In this document: positions 1 through 26,806 of the stretch, in pieces
Numbering within the stretch: the stretch's first letter is position 1
Layout of the letters: every line of letters begins with the position of its first letter
From: an uncultured Planctomycetaceae bacterium
Lineage (GTDB): Bacteria > Planctomycetota > Planctomycetia > Isosphaerales > Isosphaeraceae
Direction: 5' to 3'
NCBI GenBank assembly: GCA_963833985.1
Contig: CAWIAD010000002.1
Location: 5,344,001 to 5,408,000, forward strand
Length of the DNA stretch: 64,000 bases
Made by a program: the position numbers and the translations under genes
Notes under the pieces: model-generated
Database searches by the model: none
Seen by the model: only the letters and a program-made list of their open reading frames with translations
Told to the model about the DNA's origin: nothing

Positions 1-294
1 CATGTACTCCTGGTCCACCTGGATCACGTCGCCGATGTCGTACTCGCTCGCATCGCCGACGGTCAGGGTGGTGGCCCCCGCCGTGAAGGCGGCAGCGACG
101 GGCTGGCTACGGGGGCGATAGTTGTCGTTGGTGATGAGAAACTGGGGCGCGCCGGTCGGCAGCTTGGGCAGCCGGGAGATCAGTGGCGTGCGGTTGACGA
201 ACCAGTTGATCGCCACTCCGAACACGTCGTTCGGAATGACCCCGGCGTTGAACGCCGTGAATTGAGTCAGCGGTCCACCTTCATACAGAGGCAT
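1..294 (-). CDS. Probable major capsid protein (DUF5309/SU10-like), N-terminal part; runs off window start
   Basis: Manual translation from ATG at 294: MPLYEGGPLTQFTAFNAGVIPNDVFGVAINWFVNRTPLISRLPKL...GDVIQVDQEYM. AAGGA RBS upstream; follows the scaffold gene in head-gene order. Family assignment is by recollection. Confidence 0.6.
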   Translation of the reverse strand, partial: MPLYEGGPLTQFTAFNAGVIPNDVFGVAINWFVNRTPLISRLPKLPTGAPQFLITNDNYRPRSQPVAAAFTAGATTLTVGDASEYDIGDVIQVDQEYM

Positions 295-387
295 GGGTTA
301 GTCCTTTGGCACGTGGCCGATGAATGAACAAAGCGGGTCTTCTCAACTTCTGGCCACTGGCCACAGACCACTGGCCAATGCGATGGG

Positions 388-1134
388 TCACTGCCGGTTG
401 CCGGACGGGCGAAGCCCGAAGGCCTGGTACTGGTTCTGCCGGTTCCTCCATTCCGAAACGATCGAGTCGAGCGAACCGGGCTGGGTCAGGGACGGGCCCG
501 CCGGTGGCCGGGTGGCGTCGCTGCCGGAACCACCGCGTGAGGACGGGGCGAAAAAGATGGCGAACTGAGGCGAATCGAGGCGCTCGCGGAGCACCTCGGT
601 CGCGGGCCGGCCGCTCACCTTCTCCCGCACCATCAGGGCGCCGGAGCCGTCACGCGTGGTCTCGAATTCGTCGGCCAGCAGGCGGCGGACCATCACGGCC
701 GTGGCGGCCCGCGCCTCGGGCGTCTCACCCACGAACGCACGGCCGTGGAAAGCCTCGGCAATGGCCGAGTTCTTGCGCTCGGCATTGACTTGCTGCTCGA
801 GCTGGCTGTAGCGGTTCAACGCCTCGGCATGTTTCTGTTCCCAGCTCTTCCGCTGCTGGGTCAGCGCTTCCTCCACCTGGCCCTTCTCGGCAAGCGCCCG
901 CAGCCGCTCGGCCTCCTTGGCCTCGAGCATCGCTTGCTGGGCTTTCTGCACGTCCTCGAGTTGGTGCTCCAGCGATCGCAGCCGCTGGTACTCCTCGACG
1001 CTCAGGTGAATCGTCGGCGGCAGGGACGCTTCGGGGACCGTGGAAGGGCGGCCGGAATCTGGCGGCAGTGCCGGCTGCGCCTGGCCAGGAGACGTCGCGC
1101 CGGCATTCGTCGGCGAATAGGGTTGGTCACTCAC
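388..1134 (-). CDS. Putative capsid scaffolding protein (coiled coil)
   Basis: GTG start at 1134 with GGAG RBS. Long E/Q/K/A coiled coil followed by a GGSGS-type C-terminal motif; lies between portal and capsid. Confidence 0.65.
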   Translation of the reverse strand: MSDQPYSPTNAGATSPGQAQPALPPDSGRPSTVPEASLPPTIHLSVEEYQRLRSLEHQLEDVQKAQQAMLEAKEAERLRALAEKGQVEEALTQQRKSWEQKHAEALNRYSQLEQQVNAERKNSAIAEAFHGRAFVGETPEARAATAVMVRRLLADEFETTRDGSGALMVREKVSGRPATEVLRERLDSPQFAIFFAPSSRGGSGSDATRPPAGPSLTQPGSLDSIVSEWRNRQNQYQAFGLRPSGNRQ

Positions 1135-1237
1135 GGTAAGGCTCCAGTGCGTGGCGCTCTCTTGCGGGATGTGGTCGCTTCGGCAAGTCCAGGCTTCGCA
1201 GGGCACGGGCTTCGCAAGGCCCCGGCTCCGCGGCGCG

Positions 1238-2883
1238 TTACGGCTTTGTTTGCGGCTCCGGGTCGTCGGCCTCGCCCTCGCCCTCGCGGAGCTCCCCCGC
1301 ACGGGTGCGCAGGTAATCGTCCAGCTCCGTGTCGAACTCGCTGTACTGCTCGTCCTCGAGGCCCGGAAGCATCAGCCGGACCAGCCTTCGCAGCAGCTCG
1401 CTCTCGGTCTCCGGCGCGTTGCCGGCATTTGCCAGGATCTCCTGGAACTGGCCGATCGTCCGTGCCAGCTCCTCCGCGGTGAAAAGATCGAACTGCGTGG
1501 GATAAGCAATCCTCACGTCCTCGCGATCGGCGGAGGCCCGGCCGTCGTCCAGCACCAGCAGGGCCAGCTCGGCGATCTGCTTCTCGGCGCGGCCCAGCAT
1601 GCCGGCAATCTTGCCCAGCAGGTCGTTGCCGGCGGACTGGTCGATCCGCTTGGAGATGCCGCTCTGCGCGACGGTCGTCCCTGTTGATCCGCTCGCACCG
1701 GCCGGCTTCAGCAGCAGCGCCGCGCGGTCCGCGGCGTCGCGCAGATCGGCCTTGTTCAGGCGGATCGACTCGGCACCCCCCTTGGGAAACTCGACGACGT
1801 CGAACCCCTCGTAGGTCGCGCCCGCACCGCTGGAGTTCTTCTTCTTGGGCAGCAGCCAGTTCGGGCCGATCGGCACCGTGCCGTCCGGCTGGACGTAGTC
1901 TTCGGGTCCCTGCAAGAGCGGGTGCGCCTGGGTGGTATCCGAGAGGATCAGCTCGCTATCGCGGTTGTAGAATTCTCGCTGAAGCTCGGCGATGGATTCG
2001 TACCGCGGCAAGCCGATGTTGCCAAAGCGCGGCCGGCGGCGGTCGAACACCCGGACGATGGGCACTCGCCCGAACGGATGCGCGACGGGCCCGGCCTGGA
2101 TGTCGCCGGCTTCATCGAAGAGCATCCAGGTTCTCGCGTCCCAGTAACGCCAGAGAACCGAGCCGTCATCGCGCACCTCGCGGACCACGCACTGGCGGTA
2201 ATGGCCAAGCCGGTCCAGGCTCCACCAGAGCATGTTCTCGGGAAGGATGTACGAGGCCACGCAGCCGTCGAGGCCCAGACGAAACTCGTCGGCACGGGTG
2301 CGGACCTGCTCGCCGTCGGGAAGCGGCGGGTGGTCGACCACGATGTCGAGCTGGCCCAGCACCAGGAGCAGCGGGGCGATGGTCCCGGACATCCACTGGT
2401 CGATCGTGGTACCGCGGCCGTCCACGTTCTTCCACCAGGCGCGGAGCCTTTCGGGAGCGCCGCGATGGACTTCCCGGCTGAAGATCCGCGCCAGGTGGGC
2501 CTCGACCGCCTCGGCCACGAACGTGGGCACGGGCGTGCGCGCCTGCGCAGCTCGTAATCGTCGTCGGTGGCCTGGTTCGCCGGATCGGTGCCCGGCGGCC
2601 TGCCGGTCTGCATCGAGTAGTTCGAGTCGAATGCCGAAGGGTACTCGCGCTTGTGCCGGATGAGGTTGCGCACGGGCAAGCCGTGGATGTCATATCCATA
2701 CACGGCCATGCGATAAGCCTCGCCCCCTTCCCACGAATCGAGCAGCCAGCGCCAGCGTAGCTGGAACAGGATCCACTCGTTGTGGGGCCGCTCGATCGTT
2801 TGCCCGTCGGGCAACGCGATGCGCGGCATCCCCCCCTGACTCGCCAGGTAGGCCAGGGCCGCTGAGTTTGGTGCAAGTGGCAT
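1238..2883 (-). CDS. Phage portal protein (frameshift near 2545)
   Basis: N-terminus from ORF 1948..2883 (RWRWLLDSWEGG...YELRR) joins ORF 1238..2530 (HPFGRVPIV, SIAELQREFYNRDSE, QSGISKR, IAYPTQFD), typical of portal proteins. Directly downstream of TerL. Confidence 0.75.
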
Positions 2884-2928
2884 GGTAGAAATCGGTGGGT
2901 TTCTTGGGAAAACGGGATCAGTGCTGCG

Positions 2929-4437
2929 TCAGAACACTCGTGCCGCCCGGGCCCTGCCCAGGCCTCTTTGCCGGCTGTGACTTTCCGGGAGCATCAGCTT
3001 CAGTGCTCCGCGAAGGGCATCGATCAGGTCCTCGTGGGGGTGCTGCGGATCGGCCGGGTAGTCCATCCACTGACCCGAACGGCGGGCTCGGGCGTAGCTT
3101 CTCATGGCGGCGATCAGAGTGTTGCACCGCGGGTGGATGGTCAGGCGGACGCCGCCGTCGGCCGAGCGGACGAGGTTCTCTATGAGACCCAGGCCATCGG
3201 TCACGCAGCCGGGATACTTGGGCCACTGGAGCAGGCCGCCGTCGCCCACCAGGCCGCACCTCTGGTACTCCGCGATGACGGTGGGCCCGACCGGGTTCCG
3301 CGACCCGCCGGCCGAATCGGTAGACACCTGCCGTCGCGCCGCACCACAGAGCCGTTCGGCCATGCCGCGGATCGACAGGGCGCAGGATTCGGCAGTCTGT
3401 CCCTCGGCCAGGAAGTCCGCGAAGATGTTCACCCGTGGCAGGGCATCGGGGCGCAGCTGGAGGAACACCGCGCCGGTGAAGACGCCACTGTCGATGGCAA
3501 TGTGCACCGGCAGCTCCGGGTTGAACTCGGCGTCCGGCGAGACGTTGTCGGCCTCGACAAACTGCGCGAACCAGACGCCGTCGGCCCGGGGCCCCCGGCA
3601 CAGGTAATCGCTGGCGAAGACCCGGGGTGAGACCGCCTTGCACTTCTGGATCAGAGCATCGATGGTGTAATGACCGCGGCTGCGCTTGGCCTTGGGCCGG
3701 CCGTGGGGGTCAAGATCGCGGTCCTCGTGACACCAGCTCACCAGGGGACACGCGGGGCACTTCTCCAGGTTCGGGCCGCTTCGCTCCGGTGGGCAACGCT
3801 CCAGCACCTCGAACATGCAGTACGTGAAGACCGGGAACTCGCCGGACCGCCCGCGCTCGATGAGCTGCGACATCGGTCCCACCAGGCGGTGCCAGGTTGA
3901 GGTCATGAGCACGCTGGCGCGGCAGCCGTGCCGCTCCATCACCATGCCCATCGCCGACTCGCGGATGTCCGGGTCGATCTCGTCCACCTCGTCCAGCTTC
4001 AGGCTGGCAACGTGCGGGCCGCGAACGCTGGTGGGGCTGGCGGCCAGGATCGCCACGCGCGACCGGTTCTGATACACGACCTCCGTCTTCAGCAGCTTGC
4101 CAATGGCGGCCGCGTCGCCGCCCAGGGCGCCCCTGCCATCGACGATCGCCTCGGTGAGCGCCCGGTAGATCTGCTCGGACTGCGCCTTGGAACCACCCAG
4201 GATCCTGGTTTCGTGGAGCGGGTGGAAACGGCTCTTCAAGTGTGTGTCGATGGCCGAGAGAAATGACTTGCCGCTGCCGCGCGGGCCGTGCCAGAGTGCC
4301 AGAGAGGGTCGCTCCAGCACCTGCTGGCTGAACATCGCCAGCGGCGCGGAGTGCCCCACGCAGACCGGGCGGTCGGGAATGCGCACACCGGTGAACTGGC
4401 GGACCCAGTCGGCCAGCTCGGCGCTGCTGGCCGGCAT
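2929..4437 (-). CDS. Terminase large subunit
   Basis: Walker A HGPRGSGKS, Walker B LKLDEVDE, motif III MTST, nuclease IAIDSG and C-terminal HEDLIDALR. Start uncertain (ORF open to 4572). Confidence 0.85.
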   Translation of the reverse strand: MPASSAELADWVRQFTGVRIPDRPVCVGHSAPLAMFSQQVLERPSLALWHGPRGSGKSFLSAIDTHLKSRFHPLHETRILGGSKAQSEQIYRALTEAIVDGRGALGGDAAAIGKLLKTEVVYQNRSRVAILAASPTSVRGPHVASLKLDEVDEIDPDIRESAMGMVMERHGCRASVLMTSTWHRLVGPMSQLIERGRSGEFPVFTYCMFEVLERCPPERSGPNLEKCPACPLVSWCHEDRDLDPHGRPKAKRSRGHYTIDALIQKCKAVSPRVFASDYLCRGPRADGVWFAQFVEADNVSPDAEFNPELPVHIAIDSGVFTGAVFLQLRPDALPRVNIFADFLAEGQTAESCALSIRGMAERLCGAARRQVSTDSAGGSRNPVGPTVIAEYQRCGLVGDGGLLQWPKYPGCVTDGLGLIENLVRSADGGVRLTIHPRCNTLIAAMRSYARARRSGQWMDYPADPQHPHEDLIDALRGALKLMLPESHSRQRGLGRARAARVF

Positions 4438-4453
4438 GCGATTGCGGACCGCG

Positions 4454-4807
4454 TCAATCAGGCTCGGCAGGACCCTGGTCTCGTCCCAGCTCGAGAATCT
4501 GGCGGGCGAGTTTGTCATCGATGTCAACTGCATCACGGCTTGAGGGGTCCGCGGAGCCCGGCTTGCCGTCAAGCCGGGTCCAGATTTCCAGCATGGCCCG
4601 CAGGCTTCCTCTGTCGGTGAATTCCAGGAGTCCCTGCACCAGCCGGTCTTGCCAGGAGACTCCGTCGCTGCTTCGCTTGTTGAGGTGGTTCCTCAGGCGG
4701 AAGGTCAAGCTGCCTCGGGCGGGGACCTCACTCTGCTGCCTCCGGTCGTTCTCCGGGGCCTCAGCCGGGTCGTTGTTGAGCCATGAATCAAGTTGAGGAT
4801 CGGCCAT
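4454..4807 (-). CDS. Putative terminase small subunit
   Basis: 117 aa immediately upstream of TerL; GSLRAMLEIWTRLDGKP resembles small-terminase/DUF5681-type C-termini. Confidence 0.5.
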   Translation of the reverse strand: MADPQLDSWLNNDPAEAPENDRRQQSEVPARGSLTFRLRNHLNKRSSDGVSWQDRLVQGLLEFTDRGSLRAMLEIWTRLDGKPGSADPSSRDAVDIDDKLARQILELGRDQGPAEPD

Positions 4808-5166
4808 CAGGGCACCGTCGAAGTGTCCGAGTTGTCCACGATGTGCCCGAGCTGCCGGATGATCCCCTCGAGCTGTTCCATCATCTCGTGCCGGTGCTTG
4901 TCATCCTCGTTCTGCTGCTTCTGGCTGTCTTGCAGCGACAGGAGCAGGCTGGCGAACTGACCCTGCTGGAAGGTTTCCTGCCGCTGGAACCGCTGGCGGA
5001 CCTCGCGGACCAGGGCGCGTGACCGCCGCTCAACTTGCCAGAGCTCGATGCTCATGTAGCCAAGAATGAGCGCCAGAAACACAAGCGCCCTGAGCTGCGG
5101 TGTGCGCTGCCGCCACCAGCCGAGCAAGTCATACCAGATGAATGTCCGCCTCGGATTCTTCATCAT
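4807..5166 (-). CDS. Small single-TM membrane protein with coiled coil
   Basis: TM segment LRALVFLALILGYMSI; stop overlaps the ATG of the TerS-like gene (TGATG). Confidence 0.55.
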   Translation of the reverse strand: MMKNPRRTFIWYDLLGWWRQRTPQLRALVFLALILGYMSIELWQVERRSRALVREVRQRFQRQETFQQGQFASLLLSLQDSQKQQNEDDKHRHEMMEQLEGIIRQLGHIVDNSDTSTVP

Positions 5167-5515
5167 CAAAGTGAACCTCCGGAACCGCCGGCAGCGCCGC
5201 GACAGCACCGTGCGCTGCCTTGGCCCAGCCATACAGCTCACGCACGGCGACGCCGGACCGGCTGCTACGCAGCTTGATCCTGAGCATGGCGACCTCGTGC
5301 TCGCGCTGCTTCTGCCGGTCCGACCAGTAGTCCTTGATAAAGGCGGAGATCGCCGCGACCAGTCCCGCCCCGCCCAGCAGGAACGAGCCCGTGCCCACGG
5401 AGGTGTCCGTCGAGCTCGCCTCGGCGATCACCGCAGCGCCGGTGGCCAGCAATCCGCCCACGACGGTGAGTGTCCTCGAGGTGAGTTCTGGCAGAATGCT
5501 CATGACACGCTCCAC
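5129..5515 (-). CDS. Small two-TM membrane protein (holin-like topology)
   Basis: Two hydrophobic segments followed by a charged tail (KDYWSDRQKQREHE); GGAAGG RBS. Confidence 0.55.
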   Translation of the reverse strand: MERVMSILPELTSRTLTVVGGLLATGAAVIAEASSTDTSVGTGSFLLGGAGLVAAISAFIKDYWSDRQKQREHEVAMLRIKLRSSRSGVAVRELYGWAKAAHGAVAALPAVPEVHFDDEESEADIHLV

Positions 5516-5676
5516 CCTTCCCGGTGCTGAAACGAGATGAGTTCACGGAAGAACGTTCCAGACTCTTTCGGAGAAGAGCAACGCAAGACCTGCTAGCGAC
5601 AGCAGGACCAGCCATGCCAGGTCTCCATGGTCCATCCTCGGCACGAATCGTGGCATGGCCGGAGCCTGTGGTGAAA

Positions 5677-6306
5677 TCAAGGTTTCCACGCTTTGACTTG
5701 CGGGGACGGATCCGCCGCATGGCTCGCGGAGGTCCCTGCCTGCGCCAGTCCTGTACGCCGGGCCGCGTACAGCCGCTCCCGGCGCTGCTTCCTCGTCTCC
5801 TTCACTCCCACGGCTGCCCTGACCGCGGCGGGCTTGCTCTCGGGACGCGGGTCGGTCCGGGGGTCGCGCTTCAGCGCTGGATGGTCGTCGAATCCCGACC
5901 GGGAACAGACCATGCAACAGAACACCGACCCGCGAGGGATCGGGCCGTGATGCGGACAGACCGATTGGGGGGTGAACGACCCGACCGGGAAAAGCGGCAT
6001 CAGCCGGGGCGGACGATCGCGTGCATCACCCGAGAGGCTGCGCACTGCGCCACTTGCCACCTCGTCCCGTGTGTGCAGGTCCCCGCTGAATCGGGTATTG
6101 CTGGAACGGGAGATCTGATGATTCGCTTTCTCCCGCGCTCGGGAGACCCCCAGCTGGATGCTGCGGCAACTGAGCCGTTCCTGCCTGGCGATCTCCTTGA
6201 TGCTCTTGCCGCAACGAACCTCTTCGAGCCAGGAAAGCTCGCGGCCCTGGCAGGCCACGGAACGCTGGGGCCTGCTCATGCCAGGTAAACCACGTGTACC
6301 GGCCAT
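5677..6306 (-). CDS. Putative transcription regulator: HTH plus Cys/His (Zn-binding?) domain
   Basis: GKSIKEIARQERLSCRSIQLGVSRAR is HTH-like; CPHH...CCMVC...DDHP cluster; first gene of the head operon. Confidence 0.5.
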   Translation of the reverse strand: MAGTRGLPGMSRPQRSVACQGRELSWLEEVRCGKSIKEIARQERLSCRSIQLGVSRAREKANHQISRSSNTRFSGDLHTRDEVASGAVRSLSGDARDRPPRLMPLFPVGSFTPQSVCPHHGPIPRGSVFCCMVCSRSGFDDHPALKRDPRTDPRPESKPAAVRAAVGVKETRKQRRERLYAARRTGLAQAGTSASHAADPSPQVKAWKP

Positions 6307-6617
6307 GTCGGTCGATCCTCAGCCGCCCGGCCACGATCGACTCTGCTCTCAGAATGCGCCAGGAATCTGGCTGATTTGCGTGAAAGACCTCCTAGTGGCC
6401 CATCACTCGTCTCTCAAGTTGTTATGCATCAAGAACTTGGACAAAAAGAAAAAAAACCGCCGGTGCGCAAAGAAAGGTGGCGATCTGGCGTCTTTGTGTC
6501 GCAGACTCAGAAGGGGGAGTGGCGCAATCTGGAATCTGGAATGACCTTATCTAACCAAGCCCGCCCGGCCCGGTCGCCTGCGCAGGCTCCCCTGAATCCG
6601 TCCGCCGATCTGATCGC

Positions 6618-7514
6618 TCAGGCCTCGTCCGCGCGCCCCGGCTGTCCTGATGGGGTTTCCACGGAGCGGGCCAACGGCAAGCTGGACGTCAGATGCACGC
6701 GTCCAAAGAGTGCCTGTCCGGAAAGGGCGGCGTCGGCGTGGCGACGCGGCCGCTTGCCGCCAGCGACCGGAACGGCCCGGGGCACTGACCAGGAAGCCGT
6801 TGCGGCCTCGTCCCAGTGCCCCGGCTGGCGGCACGGTACGACGACCCGCATCATGAACGCCGCGTGGCAGCCGCTCCCAGCCAGAACGAACAGGTGAAAC
6901 AGCTCATGCGAGCCGAAAACCCCTGGCAGCGGCACCGGCCAGCCTCGCAGGTTGATGAGAGCACCCATGCTGTAGAGAACACCCCCCAGCGGAAGCGGCA
7001 AGAGCGTGCGGTGGCTCAGGCTTCGAGCCAGCTCGCGATAGCAGATCAGAACCCCCCAGCCCATGGTCATGTAGATGGTGGTGGAAAGCCAGATGGGCAA
7101 GACCCCGCCCAACCAGACGCGCGCCGAGCAAAATGCGGCCACGCTCCAGACCACGCTCAGGGTACCGTGCCTCCAGCGGCGACGGAAAAGCGACCACGTG
7201 GCTGGCGTGTAAGTACCGGCAATCAGCAGGTAAATCCCCACGTGGTCCAGCCTGCGGTACCACCCGAGCGCCTCCCCGGAGAGCCGGACAGAGTGGTACA
7301 GGGCGCTGCTGCCGAAGCAGATCACCAGGGTCAGACCATAGAGGACCAGGGTTGCGCGCTTGCCGCGCTGGTAGTGCGTCACCCGGTCGTCGCCCGATGT
7401 GTCCCGCAACGGAGACCTTGCGCGTTCCCAGAAGATCCACGTGAGCGGAAGGGCCAGCATCATGCCCACGCCATGGCTGAGAGCGCTGATCGGCTCTCGA
7501 AGTTCAAGCAGCAT
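6618..7514 (-). CDS. Hemolysin III/PAQR family membrane protein
   Basis: REPISALSHG, SSALYH, RRLDHVGIYLLIAGTYTP and HELFHLFVLAG motifs. Confidence 0.9.
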   Translation of the reverse strand: MLLELREPISALSHGVGMMLALPLTWIFWERARSPLRDTSGDDRVTHYQRGKRATLVLYGLTLVICFGSSALYHSVRLSGEALGWYRRLDHVGIYLLIAGTYTPATWSLFRRRWRHGTLSVVWSVAAFCSARVWLGGVLPIWLSTTIYMTMGWGVLICYRELARSLSHRTLLPLPLGGVLYSMGALINLRGWPVPLPGVFGSHELFHLFVLAGSGCHAAFMMRVVVPCRQPGHWDEAATASWSVPRAVPVAGGKRPRRHADAALSGQALFGRVHLTSSLPLARSVETPSGQPGRADEA

Positions 7515-7638: not shown

Positions 7639-8580
7639 TCACCGATCCGGTGGGCAACGTTTCCCACGATCGCGCCAGAGCAGCAGTGCGGCAGCGGCCA
7701 GGCCGAAGACCACGAGCGTGCGGGGCTCGGGAACGGGGGTTGGCTGCACCGAACCGGTGATCACCTGGGCTTGCAGTACCGGCTTCGTGGTGCTCGCAAG
7801 CGCCTTGGGGGCAACGTTCTTGGGCGCCTTGATCCCCAGGTCGCTTTCGATCGCCGTGAGGCTTTGCTGGTTCCAGTTCACAAGCTTGCCGGATTTCAGC
7901 TTGAACAGGTTCCCCAGGTCCTGGACGAGCTTGGAATTCATGATCGGGTCGGTATTCGCGTTCGTGGGAACCAGCGTCTGGGCCTGAACAGACGTGCCGG
8001 ATGCGGCTGTGGACGTCGCCGCTACCGAAGACCCCGCCGGGGAGCTGCCGCTCGCGGACGAGGACAAGGACGAGGACGAGGCGGCCAGCCAGGCCAGGGT
8101 GGTGCCGCTCGACGCGGAGGATCCGCCCGCGCCGAAGAGCGGCGGCAGGGGCCTGACCAGGTACACACTCTGCCCGTTATAAACCGCGGCGTGCCCGTTT
8201 GCGGCCAGTGTTTCATCAAGCTGGGACTTGACCTGGGCATCGAACCGGAGCGGACCGGTAGTGGCAGCCGTGCCCGTCGTCGCTGGCGCTGAGTTCACCG
8301 TGGGGTAGTTTTGCGGCAGCGGGTTCCCCTTGAGCTGGACCGCGACATAACTGGGCAGCTCGCCGTTATTCAGAACCACCGGCCCTGCACTCGGGCTGGT
8401 CGGCATGGCAATCGGCTGTCCGTTCTGGTCCAGCACGATGGCATTGGGCAGCTTGCCGAGCTTGATGGTGGAGCACCATGCCAGCGGCCCCATGCCCGTG
8501 CCCGCACCCAGACCGATGCCGAAGATCAGCACCGCCAGTAGCCCGCGGCAGAAACGGTAAAAAAGAGCGATCATGTGCAT
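7639..8580 (-). CDS. PEP-CTERM sorting domain protein
   Basis: N-terminal signal; C-terminal VPEPRTLVVFGLAAAALLLWRDR. Confidence 0.8.
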   Translation of the reverse strand: MHMIALFYRFCRGLLAVLIFGIGLGAGTGMGPLAWCSTIKLGKLPNAIVLDQNGQPIAMPTSPSAGPVVLNNGELPSYVAVQLKGNPLPQNYPTVNSAPATTGTAATTGPLRFDAQVKSQLDETLAANGHAAVYNGQSVYLVRPLPPLFGAGGSSASSGTTLAWLAASSSSLSSSASGSSPAGSSVAATSTAASGTSVQAQTLVPTNANTDPIMNSKLVQDLGNLFKLKSGKLVNWNQQSLTAIESDLGIKAPKNVAPKALASTTKPVLQAQVITGSVQPTPVPEPRTLVVFGLAAAALLLWRDRGKRCPPDR

Positions 8581-8807
8581 GGCAGCGCCCCTCCCTGGGA
8601 AACGGCAAGTGCCGAACCGGCCTGATCTGACCGAGCTTCGATGTGACTGCGTTGAAAGGTAGGGCCTATCTAGCAGGATCACCGGGCAGGCTCAACCCGG
8701 GTTGAGCACCGCCGCGGGCGAATTGAAGCGGATTGAAAGATTTCCCTGAAGTTCTGCAACAAATGGACCGACAGCCCGCAGACCGTGCAAGGCGGACCGC
8801 TGGAGCA

Positions 8808-9180: not shown

Positions 9181-9693
9181 CTACTTGATCTGTAGTAGTT
9201 CGACTTCGAAGAGCAGGGTGGCGTTGGGCGGTATGACGCCGCCTGCGCCGCGGCTGCCGTAGCCGAGGCTGGGGGGGATCAGCAGCTCGCGCTTGCCGCC
9301 CACCTTCATGCTCATCACGCCCTCGTCCCAGCCCTTGATCACCTGGCCAGTGCCGATGACGAAATCGAAGGGCTGGCCGCGGTCCACGGAGCTGTCAAAC
9401 TTCTTGCCCTTGACTCCGTTTTCCCAGAGCCAGCCGGTGTAATGCATGTAGCAGGTTTCGCCCCTCTTGGGCTTTTCGCCGGTCCCTTCCTTGACGTCCC
9501 GGTATTGCAGGCCGCTGTCGGTCTTGGTCATCCTCTTTTCCTTCTCGGCTTGGCTGGCACGCGCGAGTGGACCCTCGGTCGCCGCGACGAAGGCGAGCAT
9601 CGCCGCCATGGCGGCAACAAGACGCCAGGGCCTCGAGGCGGTTCTGAGATGGCAGGTGAGATCCGTCGTGTGCATCATCCACATCCTCATCAT
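9181..9693 (-). CDS. FKBP-type peptidyl-prolyl isomerase
   Basis: HYTGWL, KFDSSVDRGQPF, VIKGWDEG and IPPNATLLFEVEL motifs; start uncertain. Confidence 0.95.
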   Translation of the reverse strand: MMRMWMMHTTDLTCHLRTASRPWRLVAAMAAMLAFVAATEGPLARASQAEKEKRMTKTDSGLQYRDVKEGTGEKPKRGETCYMHYTGWLWENGVKGKKFDSSVDRGQPFDFVIGTGQVIKGWDEGVMSMKVGGKRELLIPPSLGYGSRGAGGVIPPNATLLFEVELLQIK

Positions 9694-9947
9694 GTCACAT
9701 GCGGGTTCGGAGAGGGAAACGGGCCCTCCTTGCGGACTGGGTGCACCGTATCAGCGCCCGGGCGAGCGTGGCAAGAGGTTGCAGCCGGCAGGCTTTCCTG
9801 GCCGCAAGCATTCCGCAGGGCGCTTTTTTGCCGCTCCGCCTCTTCGGGTCGTTGTGTCGATCGATCCTATTGCGTACGCTCAGGTTTACATCGTCTCGGG
9901 GGTGTTCCCGCGCCTCTGCATCCGATTCCTGTGTTGAGGGTTCCTCG

Positions 9948-12450
9948 GTGATCGGTATCGGCACGACACTCAACCAGAGGTTCCTGCTCGAGCGGGAGCT
10001 GGGCCGGGGAGGGATGGGCGCGGTTTACTCGGCCACCGACCAGCTCTTGCAGCGGAGTGTGGCGATCAAGCTGCTGAAGGAGCAAAGCGGCGAGGACGTG
10101 GGCAAACGGCTGCGGCTGGAGGCCCAGATCGCCGCCCGGCTGCTGCACGATAACGTCGTACGGATTTACGACTTCGGACAGGCGGAAGGAACCTGGTACC
10201 TGGTGATGGAGCAGGTCGACGGCACCAGCTATGTCAAGCGCTGGAGGGCGCTGAGCCTGGTGGAGCGTCTCCGCGTGCTGGCCCAGGTGGCCGACGCCCT
10301 GGATTACGCCCACCACCAGGGCGTCATTCATCGCGACATCAAGCCGGGCAACGTGCTCCTGACCGCGGCGGACGTGCCCAAGCTGTCGGACTTCGGCCTG
10401 TCGCTCCTGGCCGAGCAGGCCGACGAGGCCGGGAGCATTCGTGGCACGCCCCATTACATGAGCCCGGAGCAGACCAAGGGGCGGCGGCTCGACTTTCGCA
10501 CTGATCTCTACTCCCTGGGCGTGATGCTCTACGAAAGTGCCGCCGGCGCTGTGCCGTTCACCGGCACGACGGCCGCGGTGATGGCCATGCACGTGGGGAC
10601 CATGCCCCAGCCTCCGCGCAGCCGCAACCCGGGGATTTCGGAGCCGCTGGAAAGCCTGATCCTGGCCCTCCTCTCCAAGAAGCCGGCGGCGCGGCCCGCC
10701 AGCGGCGCCGCGGTGGCGCAGGCGATCCGCGAGGAGATCGAGCGGATCGCCGGCCGCGAACAGGCCCAGGCGCAGAACGTGGCGGCCGAAGGGGCCACCG
10801 CGCCGGAGGCTCTGCCCGAGGCGGTTCCCGCTGGCCCGGACCTGTCCGCCCTGGCCGGCCTGGAACAGGAGGCCGCGAGGTCCGCCGCGGCTTCCCAGGC
10901 AGCCAGCGTCGAGCGCTTGCGGCCCGTGCCGCCGGCTCCCTCCCGTCCGGCGCAGCCGCCAGCCAGCGCGGCCGACCTGGTCGCCTCGCCACTGGTGCAG
11001 AAGATGCTCCGCGTGGTGCTGGCCGAGCCGGTGATGCTCTCGGCCGACGAGCGCTACCTCATGGGCCATTACCTGGCCTACCTGCTGATCGGCTCGCGGC
11101 GCAAGGGGCCATTCCAGCGCCGTACCGTGGATCGCCGCAACGCCGACCGCGCACGCTATCTTCTGGCCATGACCTACGCCCTGGCCTCGGGCCCCACCGA
11201 GGAGGCCGTGCACGAGGCGGCCGGCCTGCTTGACCAGAAGATCGAGGTCCGCCCTGCCCTCTCGCCGGTGGTGGTGGCCAAGTACCTGGCCTGGCGCGAT
11301 ACGCCCCAGCGCCGTCGGCTTTTCCGGCAGACGCGCAAGGCCCTCCGCGAGGCCAGCCAGCATGCCCAGAAGCAGATGACCGACGCCCGCGGCCAGCTCA
11401 ATCCCGGTCTGGTGCCCCAGACGCTCGACGACCTGCGGAAGATCGCCCCGGCCCGGAACGTGGTGGACGACGTGCTGGTGGAGCGCTGGAACCGGCTGGC
11501 CGAGGTCTGGCGCGACCATCCCGACTTCCGCGTGGCCGCCCTCCGCTATGCCTCCAGGGAAGCCTACCGCGACCCGGCCAGCCTGGCACTCTGGCCAGAG
11601 GTCGTCTACCCCTTGATCGAGCTGGCGCGCTGGCAGCGCCGGTTCCGCACCCGGGCCGAAACGCTCTGGGACACGCTGGTGGGCCGCCTTTTCCGCCCGG
11701 GCGACGCCGGCCGAACGCTGGACAGGCTGCTCGCCCGCTCCGTCCCCGCACAGGTGGTCGCGCAGATCGACGACTCGGTGAACCTGCTGGCGAAGAAGCC
11801 TCCCGTCGATGCCGAGGAAGACGCCGATGGCGAACACGAGTCCGCGGCCGATGAGACCGACCGGCTGAGCGCCCGGCTTTCCTCGGCGGCGGTGGACCTT
11901 GACGACCTGGCCCAGGAAGCGAGCAAGGACAAGGACCAGGAGCTGGTCACCCTGGTCGATGCCGACCCCATGCGGTTCCTCCAGGGCCAGCTTCAAGAGG
12001 CTCTGGAAGGAGGCCGTGAACGCCTTGACGGCCCAGGCCCGGCCTGGTGCGCCCGGGGCGAACCGCACTCCCGCACACAAACCGGTCCCCCTGGGCCCGT
12101 ATCGCCTGGTGGTCGTGGCGTCGATCCGCGGCCGTGCGGCCGGGCAGGTCGCCATCCAGGGAATGGCCAACAAGCAGATCGAGCTCACCACACCTTCGTT
12201 CCGCACCACCGGCTCGGCCAGCCGCCCCATCCTGGCCGTCTGGCTCTACCGCGATCACAGCCTGGTGATCTCGCACCTCGACTTCCAGGGCACGGAGCGC
12301 TACGTGCTCTGGCACGCCCCGCTCGCGCACCAGGTGAAGTTCGACGACCCCGCCGACCTGCACCGCGAGCTCGAAAACCTCTCCCTGGAACCCCCCGAGC
12401 ACCTCGACACCGCGCTCACCCGCCGCTTCCGCCCCAGGAATATCGTGTAA
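9948..12450 (+). CDS. Ser/Thr protein kinase with long C-terminal domain (frameshift near 11998)
   Basis: LGRGGMGAVY, AIK, HRDIKPGN, DFG and GTPHYMSPE; C-terminus continues in ORF 11899..12450 (LWKEAVNAL...). Confidence 0.9.
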
Positions 12451-12588
12451 GTTCACGGAAGCACCATGAGACCGGAACCGGATTGACAGGGCGGTTTTTT
12501 TAGCTACTCTGTATTACGCAGTAGAGAGCGGAGTCTGGGTCATTCCTCGGGCTCTGCTCGGTCTTTGCGAGATGGGGAAAGCGTGGAT

Positions 12589-25152: not shown

Positions 25153-26806
25153 GATCACGCCCCCAACAATGTTGCGAACTACGTTGTTGGGGGCCTTTCT
25201 CAAAAGGGGACGGACTGACCCGATACACGATGCGGACCTCCTGCTCGTCGATCTCGACCTTCTTCACCAAGGCCCGAACCACCTCCCGTCGCGTGGCCCA
25301 GTCCGGCTCTTGCAACCCTTGCGAGACGCGACGTGCGAACTCCTCCAACTGACCGATCACCAGTCGCAATTCCGCCTCTTGGGCGGCCTCGCCGATTCGT
25401 TGTCGATGCTCCTCCGCCAATCTCGAGAGGCGCGTCCTTGCCGCCGAGATCCGGGGCTCGAACTCCGATTTGTCGAGCAACCCGTCGCCGTAAGCATCGA
25501 TTAATCGAGAAATCATCTTTTTCACATTATTTATCAATTTGCCGAGATGCTCCACCTCCTGATTCGGCCCGCCCTGGGCACCCTGCAGCCGCCGCTCGTA
25601 CTCCTCCCGGACCCGCTCCGGCTCGGACAGGAGACCTCGTAAGTCCTCCCAGACGGCAGCGTCAAGGATATCGGTGCGGATCTGCTTGTTCCAGCAGAGG
25701 CGCTGCCCGCCGAAACGATAGGCGTCAGAGCCCGTGCAACGGTAGTACGCGTAGCGGACCCTACCCTTGCCCTCGAACGCGGCTCGGCTCGTCGGCTTGC
25801 CGTAGCAGCCGTAGCCGCAGCGCTTGCAGACGACCAGGCCCTGGAGCAGATATCGGCCACCGCCGGGCCGGTCGCGACGGCGTTGCCGGTTCTCTTCAAG
25901 CTGGGCCTGGACAGCCAGGAAGAGGTCTTCGCTCACCAGCCCGGGGACTTCAATGAAGATTTGATCTTCCGAGGATGTATCAACCCGTGAGACCGGTCGC
26001 CGGGAGTGTTCGGGGCGGCCTCGCTGCGGGCGGAGGCGTTGAGGTTTGAACTCACCTGAGCGCGTCTTGCCGAAGGCCGCGGTCCCCTTGTAGGCAGGGT
26101 TCTTGAGGATCAACCAGACCGTCGCGCAATCCCAGGCCGATTTCCCGGTCCGCGTCGGGATACTGTCGCGCCGGAGGCGTCGGCACACCTCGCCGATCGA
26201 GCACCGTTCCTGACCCACCCATTCGAAGATCTTCCGCACGACCCGGGACTCTTCAGCGAGGACCTGATAACGCGCCTCGCCACCTCCCTCGTGCTTGCCG
26301 ATGTAACGGTAGCCGTACGGCGCGCCGCTGAGGACGTTGACCGAACCGCGGCGGGCGGCGTGTTGCTTGCCCCTGCGGCAACGCTCCATGATCTTGGCGC
26401 GCTCGTATTCCGCGATCATTCCCTGGACCTGAAGCAGCAGGTCGGCTTCCGGACTGCGGCCGACGGGGTTGCGCAAGAAGACGACCTCGACACCGCACCG
26501 GATAAGTTCCTCAAGGATCAAGACCTGATAGGCATACTTGCGTGAAAGTCGATCCGGATCGAGCATATAGAGGCGGTCGATGGCTCCAGCGGCGGCTTGG
26601 TCCCGAAGTCGCTCGAGTGCCGGTCGGGCCAGGATGTAACCGCTGACGCCGTCGTCCACGAAGTGCAGTTCGGGCTCGCATTCCAAGCCATCAGTGGCGA
26701 TCCGCTGAGTGACCGCCTCGAGCTGGCTGGCGATCGTGTCCTCCTTCTCCTGCTGCTCCCCCGAAACCCGGGCGTAGAGCGCCACGCGGAGATTGTCCGT
26801 GATCAT
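24932..26806 (-). CDS. Large serine recombinase (resolvase + recombinase + Zn-ribbon + coiled coil)
   Basis: ALYARVS catalytic motif, DDGVSG, DRLSR, APYGY, LKNPAYKG, CKRC...YYRC. ORF reads past the element end into intron sequence. Confidence 0.95.
   Translation of the reverse strand: MITDNLRVALYARVSGEQQEKEDTIASQLEAVTQRIATDGLECEPELHFVDDGVSGYILARPALERLRDQAAAGAIDRLYMLDPDRLSRKYAYQVLILEELIRCGVEVVFLRNPVGRSPEADLLLQVQGMIAEYERAKIMERCRRGKQHAARRGSVNVLSGAPYGYRYIGKHEGGGEARYQVLAEESRVVRKIFEWVGQERCSIGEVCRRLRRDSIPTRTGKSAWDCATVWLILKNPAYKGTAAFGKTRSGEFKPQRLRPQRGRPEHSRRPVSRVDTSSEDQIFIEVPGLVSEDLFLAVQAQLEENRQRRRDRPGGGRYLLQGLVVCKRCGYGCYGKPTSRAAFEGKGRVRYAYYRCTGSDAYRFGGQRLCWNKQIRTDILDAAVWEDLRGLLSEPERVREEYERRLQGAQGGPNQEVEHLGKLINNVKKMISRLIDAYGDGLLDKSEFEPRISAARTRLSRLAEEHRQRIGEAAQEAELRLVIGQLEEFARRVSQGLQEPDWATRREVVRALVKKVEIDEQEVRIVYRVSPSPFEKGPQQRSSQHCWGRDLTIVVQHLHATICEGMEDWWTRAASGRANRQLCGRLRHLLSRHGRRGHDGDAEDDVQAEVNGERDQDAAVPPA

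Follow-up and report, generated by a model that had tools for sequence, protein, structure and literature searches.

A phage-derived head and tail operon at fixed chromosomal sites in Isosphaeraceae: a candidate domesticated DNA-packaging particle of planctomycetes

This analysis concerns phage-type head genes at the left edge of a 64,000-bp stretch of DNA (termed here the window; C2:5344001-5408000, i.e., positions 5,344,001 to 5,408,000 of contig CAWIAD010000002.1 in assembly GCA_963833985.1) from an uncultured planctomycete of the family Isosphaeraceae. These genes form the front of a co-directional element of 34.5 kb, 28 kb of which lies beyond the window's left edge, and which is probably a domesticated DNA-packaging particle resembling a gene transfer agent (GTA) and captured more than once. 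The features within the window, including the adjoining host gene, are as follows (window positions):

6618..7514, minus strand: HlyIII/PAQR-family membrane protein, host flank outside the element (Pfam E 2.7e-36)
5677..6306, minus strand: first gene of the operon, protein with a helix-turn-helix (HTH)-like N-terminus and a Cys-rich motif (Pfam Sigma70_r4_2, weak, E 0.018)
5129..5515, minus strand: small hydrophobic membrane protein (69-71% identity in three same-genus loci)
4807..5241, minus strand: membrane-anchored coiled-coil protein, small and hydrophobic (about 32% identity in two same-genus loci)
4454..4807, minus strand: TerS-like protein of 117 amino acids (aa), before TerL (ESM Atlas viral/DUF5681-like clusters, 0.94-0.95)
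2929..4536, minus strand: TerL (phrog_2, E 1.7e-12)
1238..2883, minus strand: portal, with a frameshift near 2540 (phrog_145, E 1.8e-32)
388..1011, minus strand: capsid scaffolding protein (phrog_206, E 7e-11; 78% identity to G004 and G008)
350..377, plus strand: tandem array of four 7-mer units in the scaffold-capsid gap
1..294, minus strand: opening 98 codons of the gene for the major capsid protein (complete at G000:C2:5343140-5344294)

The genes that the first-pass annotation had named here--a co-directional regulator, two membrane proteins, a TerS-like protein, TerL, portal, scaffold and capsid--all correspond to open reading frames (ORFs) with PHROG or Pfam support, TerL and portal being named by PHROG alone (Pfam and NCBIfam miss both). 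The major capsid protein matches phrog_1328 and Pfam SU10_MCP (E 7e-41), and its nearest solved structure is VP1 (9in6, E 3.4e-7). In TerL the Walker A and B motifs and the nuclease aspartates are intact and the motifs conserved. The TerS-like protein gave no Pfam match at E 0.1, no detectable HTH and no match in a direct BLAST comparison with a DUF5681-type viral TerS. The longest ORF of the scaffold extends to 1302, its conserved portion starting at about 1011. The product of the first gene, which is conserved among copies at the same chromosomal site (site A, below) and has a homologue adjoining the integrase of the mobile copy G119b, is likely a phage-derived transcription regulator; gene position suggests that the 5129..5515 product is holin-like and the 4807..5241 product a lysis accessory.

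Other details of that annotation were confirmed as well: codon use is host-like (relative synonymous codon usage r=0.99; third-position GC 0.83 vs 0.86); the end of the HlyIII-family gene lies 311 bp upstream of the operon, where about 310 bp had been given, and the same flank recurs in G004, G008 and G013; and the heptamers are of a kind found elsewhere in the genome, which has 31 period-7 arrays, many with a similar consensus (the strict pattern occurs twice). No sigma-70 promoter consensus was found in window positions 1-6700. The upstream regions of four same-genus copies have some motifs in common and align poorly; between 6290 and 6640, short motifs common to three same-genus relatives have diverged in this genome.

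It had also been proposed that this is a stand-alone head-packaging operon, with neither integrase and att site nor replication genes on this side, which continues past the window start. Inspection of the adjacent DNA confirms the continuation and the lack of an integrase; it refutes both the stand-alone character and the lack of replication genes, for tail, sigma factor, primase and D5-helicase genes follow (contig coordinates):

G000:C2 5332887-5343035, minus strand: adaptor-like, gp80-like, fn3 and fibre-like genes
G000:C2 5331946-5332362, minus strand: tail tube
G000:C2 5327979-5328908, minus strand: short Pro/Gly/Ser-rich ORF at the tape-measure position
G000:C2 5323796-5325934, minus strand: gp27-like hub (model of the G004 orthologue)
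G000:C2 5320336-5321184, minus strand: pentapeptide protein
G000:C2 5318660-5319865, minus strand: sigma-70 factor
G000:C2 5317911-5318672, minus strand: RepB/AEP-like primase
G000:C2 5315776-5317851, minus strand: D5/P4 helicase with a Walker A Arg, last gene

Read leftward, the order is capsid, adaptor-like, fibre-like cargo, terminator-like, tube, chaperones, short tape-slot ORF, Dit-like, hub, pentapeptide, sigma-70, primase-like and P4/D5 helicase (the adaptor, terminator, chaperone and Dit labels were assigned by position), beyond which PEP-CTERM and carboxypeptidase host genes form the left flank. The tube is predicted to have a siphophage tube-like fold (the GTA structures 6toa and 6tba were matched at E about 1.5e-3), and the modelled hub appears gp27-like; sequence searches of the PDB with tube, hub and TerL found nothing, and no sheath was recognised by Pfam or PHROG. 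A 428-aa multi-pass membrane protein (L001:6492-7775, C2:5330489-5331775) separates the tube gene from the chaperone genes in this genome and in none of the other loci compared; other copies of the element hold glycosyltransferases.

Neither end carries an integrase or resolvase, and no tyrosine or serine recombinase was found near the element in any of the five near-closed genomes searched. No tRNA was found at the element, and no att-like repeat exceeded chance (the two ends have one chance-level 13-mer in common). A serine recombinase at 26342-26785 (minus strand) was considered as the element's integrase and rejected: it is one of 11 equal-scoring copies in the genome, lies 20 kb away beyond host genes and is likely a multi-copy insertion sequence. 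The intervening host flank includes a PEP-CTERM-type protein (7639-8682), an FKBP isomerase (9181-9693) and a Ser/Thr kinase (9699-12503), labels read from sequence; the kinase and the PEP-CTERM gene are syntenic in same-genus relatives, and the kinase is frameshifted in this assembly.

The element is a family-wide feature. Its capsid gene, mostly single-copy, occurs in 90 of 121 Isosphaeraceae genomes (37/47 high-quality genomes, 42/53 genera), the TerL ATPase part in 82 and the hub in 68, counts that include a few genomes whose sole copy looks mobile (G125, possibly G035 and G025). Named Aquisphaera, Paludisphaera and Tautonia species have homologues, with capsid identities of 81% for Aquisphaera and 76% for Paludisphaera. 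Among other Planctomycetota, capsid matches were found in 13 of 400 genomes, at 23-28% identity; these distant homologues (L141-L149) include pairs in three families and may be other domesticated loci. Within Isosphaeraceae, most of the copies examined occupy one of two sites. At site A, a carboxypeptidase flank is common to 21 genomes (six further site-A stretches that were fetched did not show it); at site B, PFK/EgtD and/or Trm112/PSP1 flanks occur in 13 of the 15 parsed clade-B loci. In an RpoB tree (FastTree), the site-A hosts form a single clade (0.999) nested among site-B hosts.

Descent was examined in trees from which 10 mobile-type rows, four viral contigs and G032 had been left out. 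The head tree (TerL, portal and capsid) has 14 of 26 splits in common with RpoB, including 12 of the 15 strong ones, as compared with a mean of 0.28 and a maximum of 3 after shuffling; the tail tree has 9 of 17 in common (7/9 strong), with a Mantel rho of 0.83. In the portal and capsid tree, three lineages (A1, A2 and B) are interleaved with mobile copies. Vertical inheritance thus appears to account for a large part of the element's history, not purely, and to hold within the three lineages. Pairwise NG86 dN/dS (pairs of at least 80 codons, above 45% identity and unsaturated) has a median of 0.21 for the element (119 pairs) and 0.17 for neighbouring genes (27 pairs, four of them a glycosyltransferase located inside the element in one genus); dS is similar in both and, because it is high, the values are rough. 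The element is under purifying selection, much as host genes are. In carbon cost per residue, fixed and mobile copies differ slightly, the cost being lower in five of six genes, and this is not used as evidence. The first-pass annotation had suggested a domesticated system, to be checked through vertical inheritance and dN/dS; the element's presence across the family, its fixed sites, trees that agree for the most part, purifying selection and the missing integrase bear out this part of its interpretation, the part about absent replication genes having failed.

The same evidence bears on the simplest alternative, namely that the locus is an ordinary temperate prophage, or a decaying remnant of one, at an integration hotspot. 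Fixed occupancy across many genera largely refutes this, and it must be considered highly improbable. An end integrase with an att site and a patchy, recent, variable-site occurrence, as expected of an intact temperate prophage, are not what is found here; tree congruence and dN/dS likewise argue against it. Although TerL is matched by 12 IMG/VR contigs, the matches L025 and L028 contain chromosomal flank genes. There are close recombinase-bearing relatives within the same family, and this copy does have frameshifts and a deletion, but its frameshift rate is that of the host background: frameshifts affect 3 of 18 genes in the element (0.18/kb) and, in the host, 10 events fall in 9 of 41 genes (0.21/kb). 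Because of this match, the break near 2540, which the earlier annotation had missed and which places the portal in two frames (in relatives it is one uninterrupted ORF of some 510-560 aa), probably reflects an assembly error, and decay was rejected as its cause. A protein search revealed no independent intact copy of this genome's portal.

The recombinase-bearing relatives provide an instructive contrast. Six variable-site copies were examined (G118b, G119b, G107b, G125, G086b and G087b), four of which adjoin a recombinase (tyrosine in G119b and G125, serine in G118b and G107b). None was found in the stretches fetched for G086b, and G087b lies on a 57,107-bp contig (G087:C20; L085, L086) that starts in portal, ends near TerL, carries DnaB and a sigma factor, and may be the entire circular genome of a temperate phage from the donor lineage. 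These temperate Isosphaeraceae prophages have homologous head and tail genes in identical order; they differ from the fixed element in the recombinase beside four of the six, a variable context, a long tape measure, extra morphogenesis genes and longer branches. Their tape-measure ORFs span 497-924 aa in all five copies with the tail in view, whereas the corresponding slot of fixed copies mostly holds Pro/Gly/Ser-rich ORFs of 175-350 aa (some A2 copies are intermediate, at 314-431 aa). Weak HTH matches come from the genes at the TerS position in G107b, G086b and L035; four site-A TerS proteins, including the window's, give none. One variable-site copy, G125:C3 (L048, L049), has its full head-tail cluster on a 201-kb contig that also encodes a tyrosine integrase; no fixed capsid copy was found in that genome, and the copy is a possible phage-plasmid or plasmid prophage. 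A further related prophage (L090:6278-9925, in G025) encodes a 1216-aa TerL with intein and LAGLIDADG matches.

Among fixed copies, the parts that are lost and kept suggest what the particle does. The hub is absent from 27 capsid-positive genomes, all of which keep TerL; fetched examples stop right after the adaptor/terminator genes or the fibre cargo. (A 70-aa gene, L075:2208-2417, with homologues in G031, G136, G070, G110 and G107a and a match in G061, occurs only at the end of tail-less copies and could either encode a neck cap or belong to the host.) The in-locus TerL ATPase, in turn, is absent from 13 capsid-positive genomes, its terminase deletion being directly seen in G075, G081, G096, G079, G007 and G020, and a separate HTH-TerS/TerL cassette is present in 12 of these 13 vs 13 of the 77 others. 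Since hub-less genomes keep TerL without exception and nearly all TerL-less ones have an orphan TerS-TerL, DNA packaging looks required. Capsids on TerL-less branches stay constrained (w 0.10-0.25; 0.38-0.39 in G071/G082).

These patterns can also be read as a domesticated particle, made of heads with or without fibred tails, with a job other than transfer--a bacteriocin, adhesion or a decoy, or controlled lysis with release of extracellular DNA--in which DNA only stabilises the particle. The fibre cargo shows rapid turnover, loss of the terminase (in G071/G072 even of the portal) leaves capsid and tail in place, and the 27 hub-less genomes imply that tail delivery is not universal. Yet tail-less copies all keep TerL, its loss coincides with an orphan terminase, and its catalytic motifs are intact. 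Moreover, tailocins drop their heads; here nothing is as constant as the head and TerL, and no sheath was recognised, unlike a tailocin or contractile injection system. On balance a non-transfer role seems unlikely.

The orphan cassettes (30 of 121 genomes; 1-7 matches each, in varied places, 44-87% identity, with HTH-like TerS) may act in trans as packaging arms or may be satellites that consist of a terminase alone. Four stand-alone examples (L226, L227, L228 and L231, from G081, G074 and G075) are 76-80% identical between genomes and have host-gene surroundings, and in G027 an orphan-family TerL sits inside the locus, just upstream of portal. Their number, scattered positions and HTH-like TerS would fit a capsid locus kept partly as a helper that mobile satellites exploit. 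This is very unlikely: 91 of the 121 genomes have no orphan cassette, including the present one (which has only its in-locus TerL), most of these keep the locus, and a parasite would leave selection on the chromosomal genes unexplained.

The primase and helicase raise a different alternative, a grounded selfish prophage that replicates in place, packages itself and its flanks by the headful (as in lateral transduction) and spreads among close kin by homologous recombination. Both genes are conserved in that 19 copies keep the linked helicase, most with the primase in view, and these helicases form one clade; head modules were apparently swapped; and the ancestral head may hold 57 kb. Primase and helicase are absent at the site, with sigma retained, in G004, G013, G101, G075 and G117, so that self-replication appears dispensable, and no primase, helicase or sigma was found in the stretches fetched for site-B copies; selection nevertheless persists, and dS is close to that of neighbouring genes. 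The helicase Walker A is, furthermore, non-canonical: Arg replaces Lys in 19/19 linked copies, through five different Arg codons, vs Lys in 8/8 unlinked homologues. Lys-to-Arg changes in Walker A usually slow hydrolysis. Among database homologues Arg occurs in 79 of the 80 closest. The substitution was rejected as proof of inactivation, being found in distant homologues too (counts below). One unlinked locus, L199 (G004:C1:8648001-8660000), encodes a primase and a D5 helicase of the Lys type, with a tyrosine integrase some 2 kb away; it looks like an integrative, satellite-like element akin to the replication module. Taken together, the evidence makes a grounded prophage quite improbable, a little more so than a non-transfer particle.

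A GTA-like viriform fits best because the operon is fixed, recombinase-free and under selection, and its constant core is a DNA-packaging head. Several observations weigh against this interpretation. The low Mantel rho of the head tree (0.42) does so, as does an approximately unbiased (AU) test that rejects a single clade for the site-A heads A1+A2 (p-AU 0.0001), and the recombinase-bearing G118b falls inside A1 (82%, in a quick tree with long branches present). The capsid is absent from 10 of the 47 good genomes, site B is empty, with its flanks adjacent, in three genomes nested among site-B hosts, the G011 copy is decaying and the G010 region is deleted; the element is thus conserved but dispensable. 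Because three genes that follow the regulator in relatives are missing, among them one for a putative papain-like lysis protease (a mobile copy has a papain-like look-alike of one of the three products), this genome's copy may not release particles. The related phage contig measures 57 kb vs 35 kb for the element, so that heads may hold more than the element itself, unlike those of classical GTAs. The TerS contrast between fixed and mobile copies depends on weak HTH matches; the association of orphan terminases with TerL loss is suggestive and not a count of independent events, because most cases fall in one clade; and G071 and G072 have lost the portal too. Distant helicase homologues have Arg in 7 of 40 cases (29 Lys, 4 unparsed), and the residue may therefore predate capture and domestication and need not inactivate.

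The discordance of the site-A heads has a plausible explanation. Because the linked helicases of A1 and A2 form one clade (99%), site A was likely captured once, one branch then exchanging its head module. On this evidence, a phage lineage was likely tamed more than once, the site-B element being the older, the site-A element arising within a nested clade and the head-module swap coming later.

For the GTA-like particle, the following mechanism may be envisaged. In a subset of cells, the HTH/Cys regulator at the front and the sigma factor encoded by the element would activate a single long operon; heads would assemble from scaffold, capsid and portal and be filled by TerL; and a TerS in which no DNA-reading HTH is detectable might confer low sequence specificity on packaging. 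Delivery of the DNA to kin would be through a short, non-contractile tail whose fibres differ between lineages, some lineages making tail-less heads. Where the in-locus terminase is deleted, an unlinked TerS-TerL cassette could provide packaging. Because the primase/D5 pair is lost in several copies and has Arg for the P-loop Lys, it may be a leftover that the element can do without, or may amplify DNA weakly in place, as in BaGTA-like run-off. A bolder and rather doubtful extension is that Isosphaeraceae possess a GTA lineage of independent origin, replenished by successive captures from a phage family that is still alive, with modular forms (tailed, tail-less filled heads, outsourced terminase), and that its Arg-P-loop helicase throttles run-off replication so as to amplify neighbouring host DNA without escape of the element.

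How the element relates to recognised GTAs can be stated more precisely. PMC9662315 defines GTA viriforms by particle proteins derived from caudoviricetes, a fully endogenized genome (often over several loci), mostly vertical inheritance, packaging of mostly random host DNA, a head too small for its own genome, delivery to cells and lost replication, and traces the classified GTAs to three exaptation events. Three of its six properties are seen genomically here: caudoviricete origin, mostly vertical inheritance and endogenization, the last from the lack of recombinase, att and tRNA, the fixed sites and the orphan terminase loci. Like RcGTA (Rhodogtaviriformidae; PMC9662315, PMC7947584), the element has a single operon, the order TerS-TerL-portal-capsid-tail, vertical descent and a short non-contractile tail; RcGTA TerS is described as having no specific DNA-binding domain (PMC7947584), and weak HTH evidence suggests the same here. 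It differs in its SU10/VP1-type capsid and scaffold, its 35-kb length, its internal sigma and primase-helicase genes, its head-only and terminase-in-trans variants and its several captures. PDB searches with capsid, TerL, tube and hub gave no sequence match to RcGTA chains, generic fold likeness apart; by sequence, then, the element is not a member of the RcGTA family. In linking a structural cluster to a phage-derived replication module with a primase-type domain, it appears closer to BaGTA (Bartogtaviriformidae; PMC5496983) than to RcGTA, run-off being proposed only; BaGTA has a TOPRIM/brr locus, whereas the element has a RepB-like primase and an SF3/D5 helicase at the operon end, lost in many copies. 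Planctomycetes are not mentioned in the available part of PMC9662315, and the sole planctomycete in that of PMC7947584 is a Zavarzinella prophage. No description of the element was found in a literature search from which supplements and most subscription papers fell outside, so that genome papers may list it as a 'prophage'.

More generally, tamed copies and recombinase-bearing relatives of one phage lineage coexist within a single family, and sometimes within a single genome, and intermediate states are present: tape-measure decay, tail loss, helicase change and loss, and terminase outsourcing. Hence the steps from prophage to GTA can be compared directly. Since homologues occur in named species of Aquisphaera, Paludisphaera and Tautonia, sequencing of particles could put the claim to the test; if true, the element would constitute a natural route of DNA transfer for planctomycetes.

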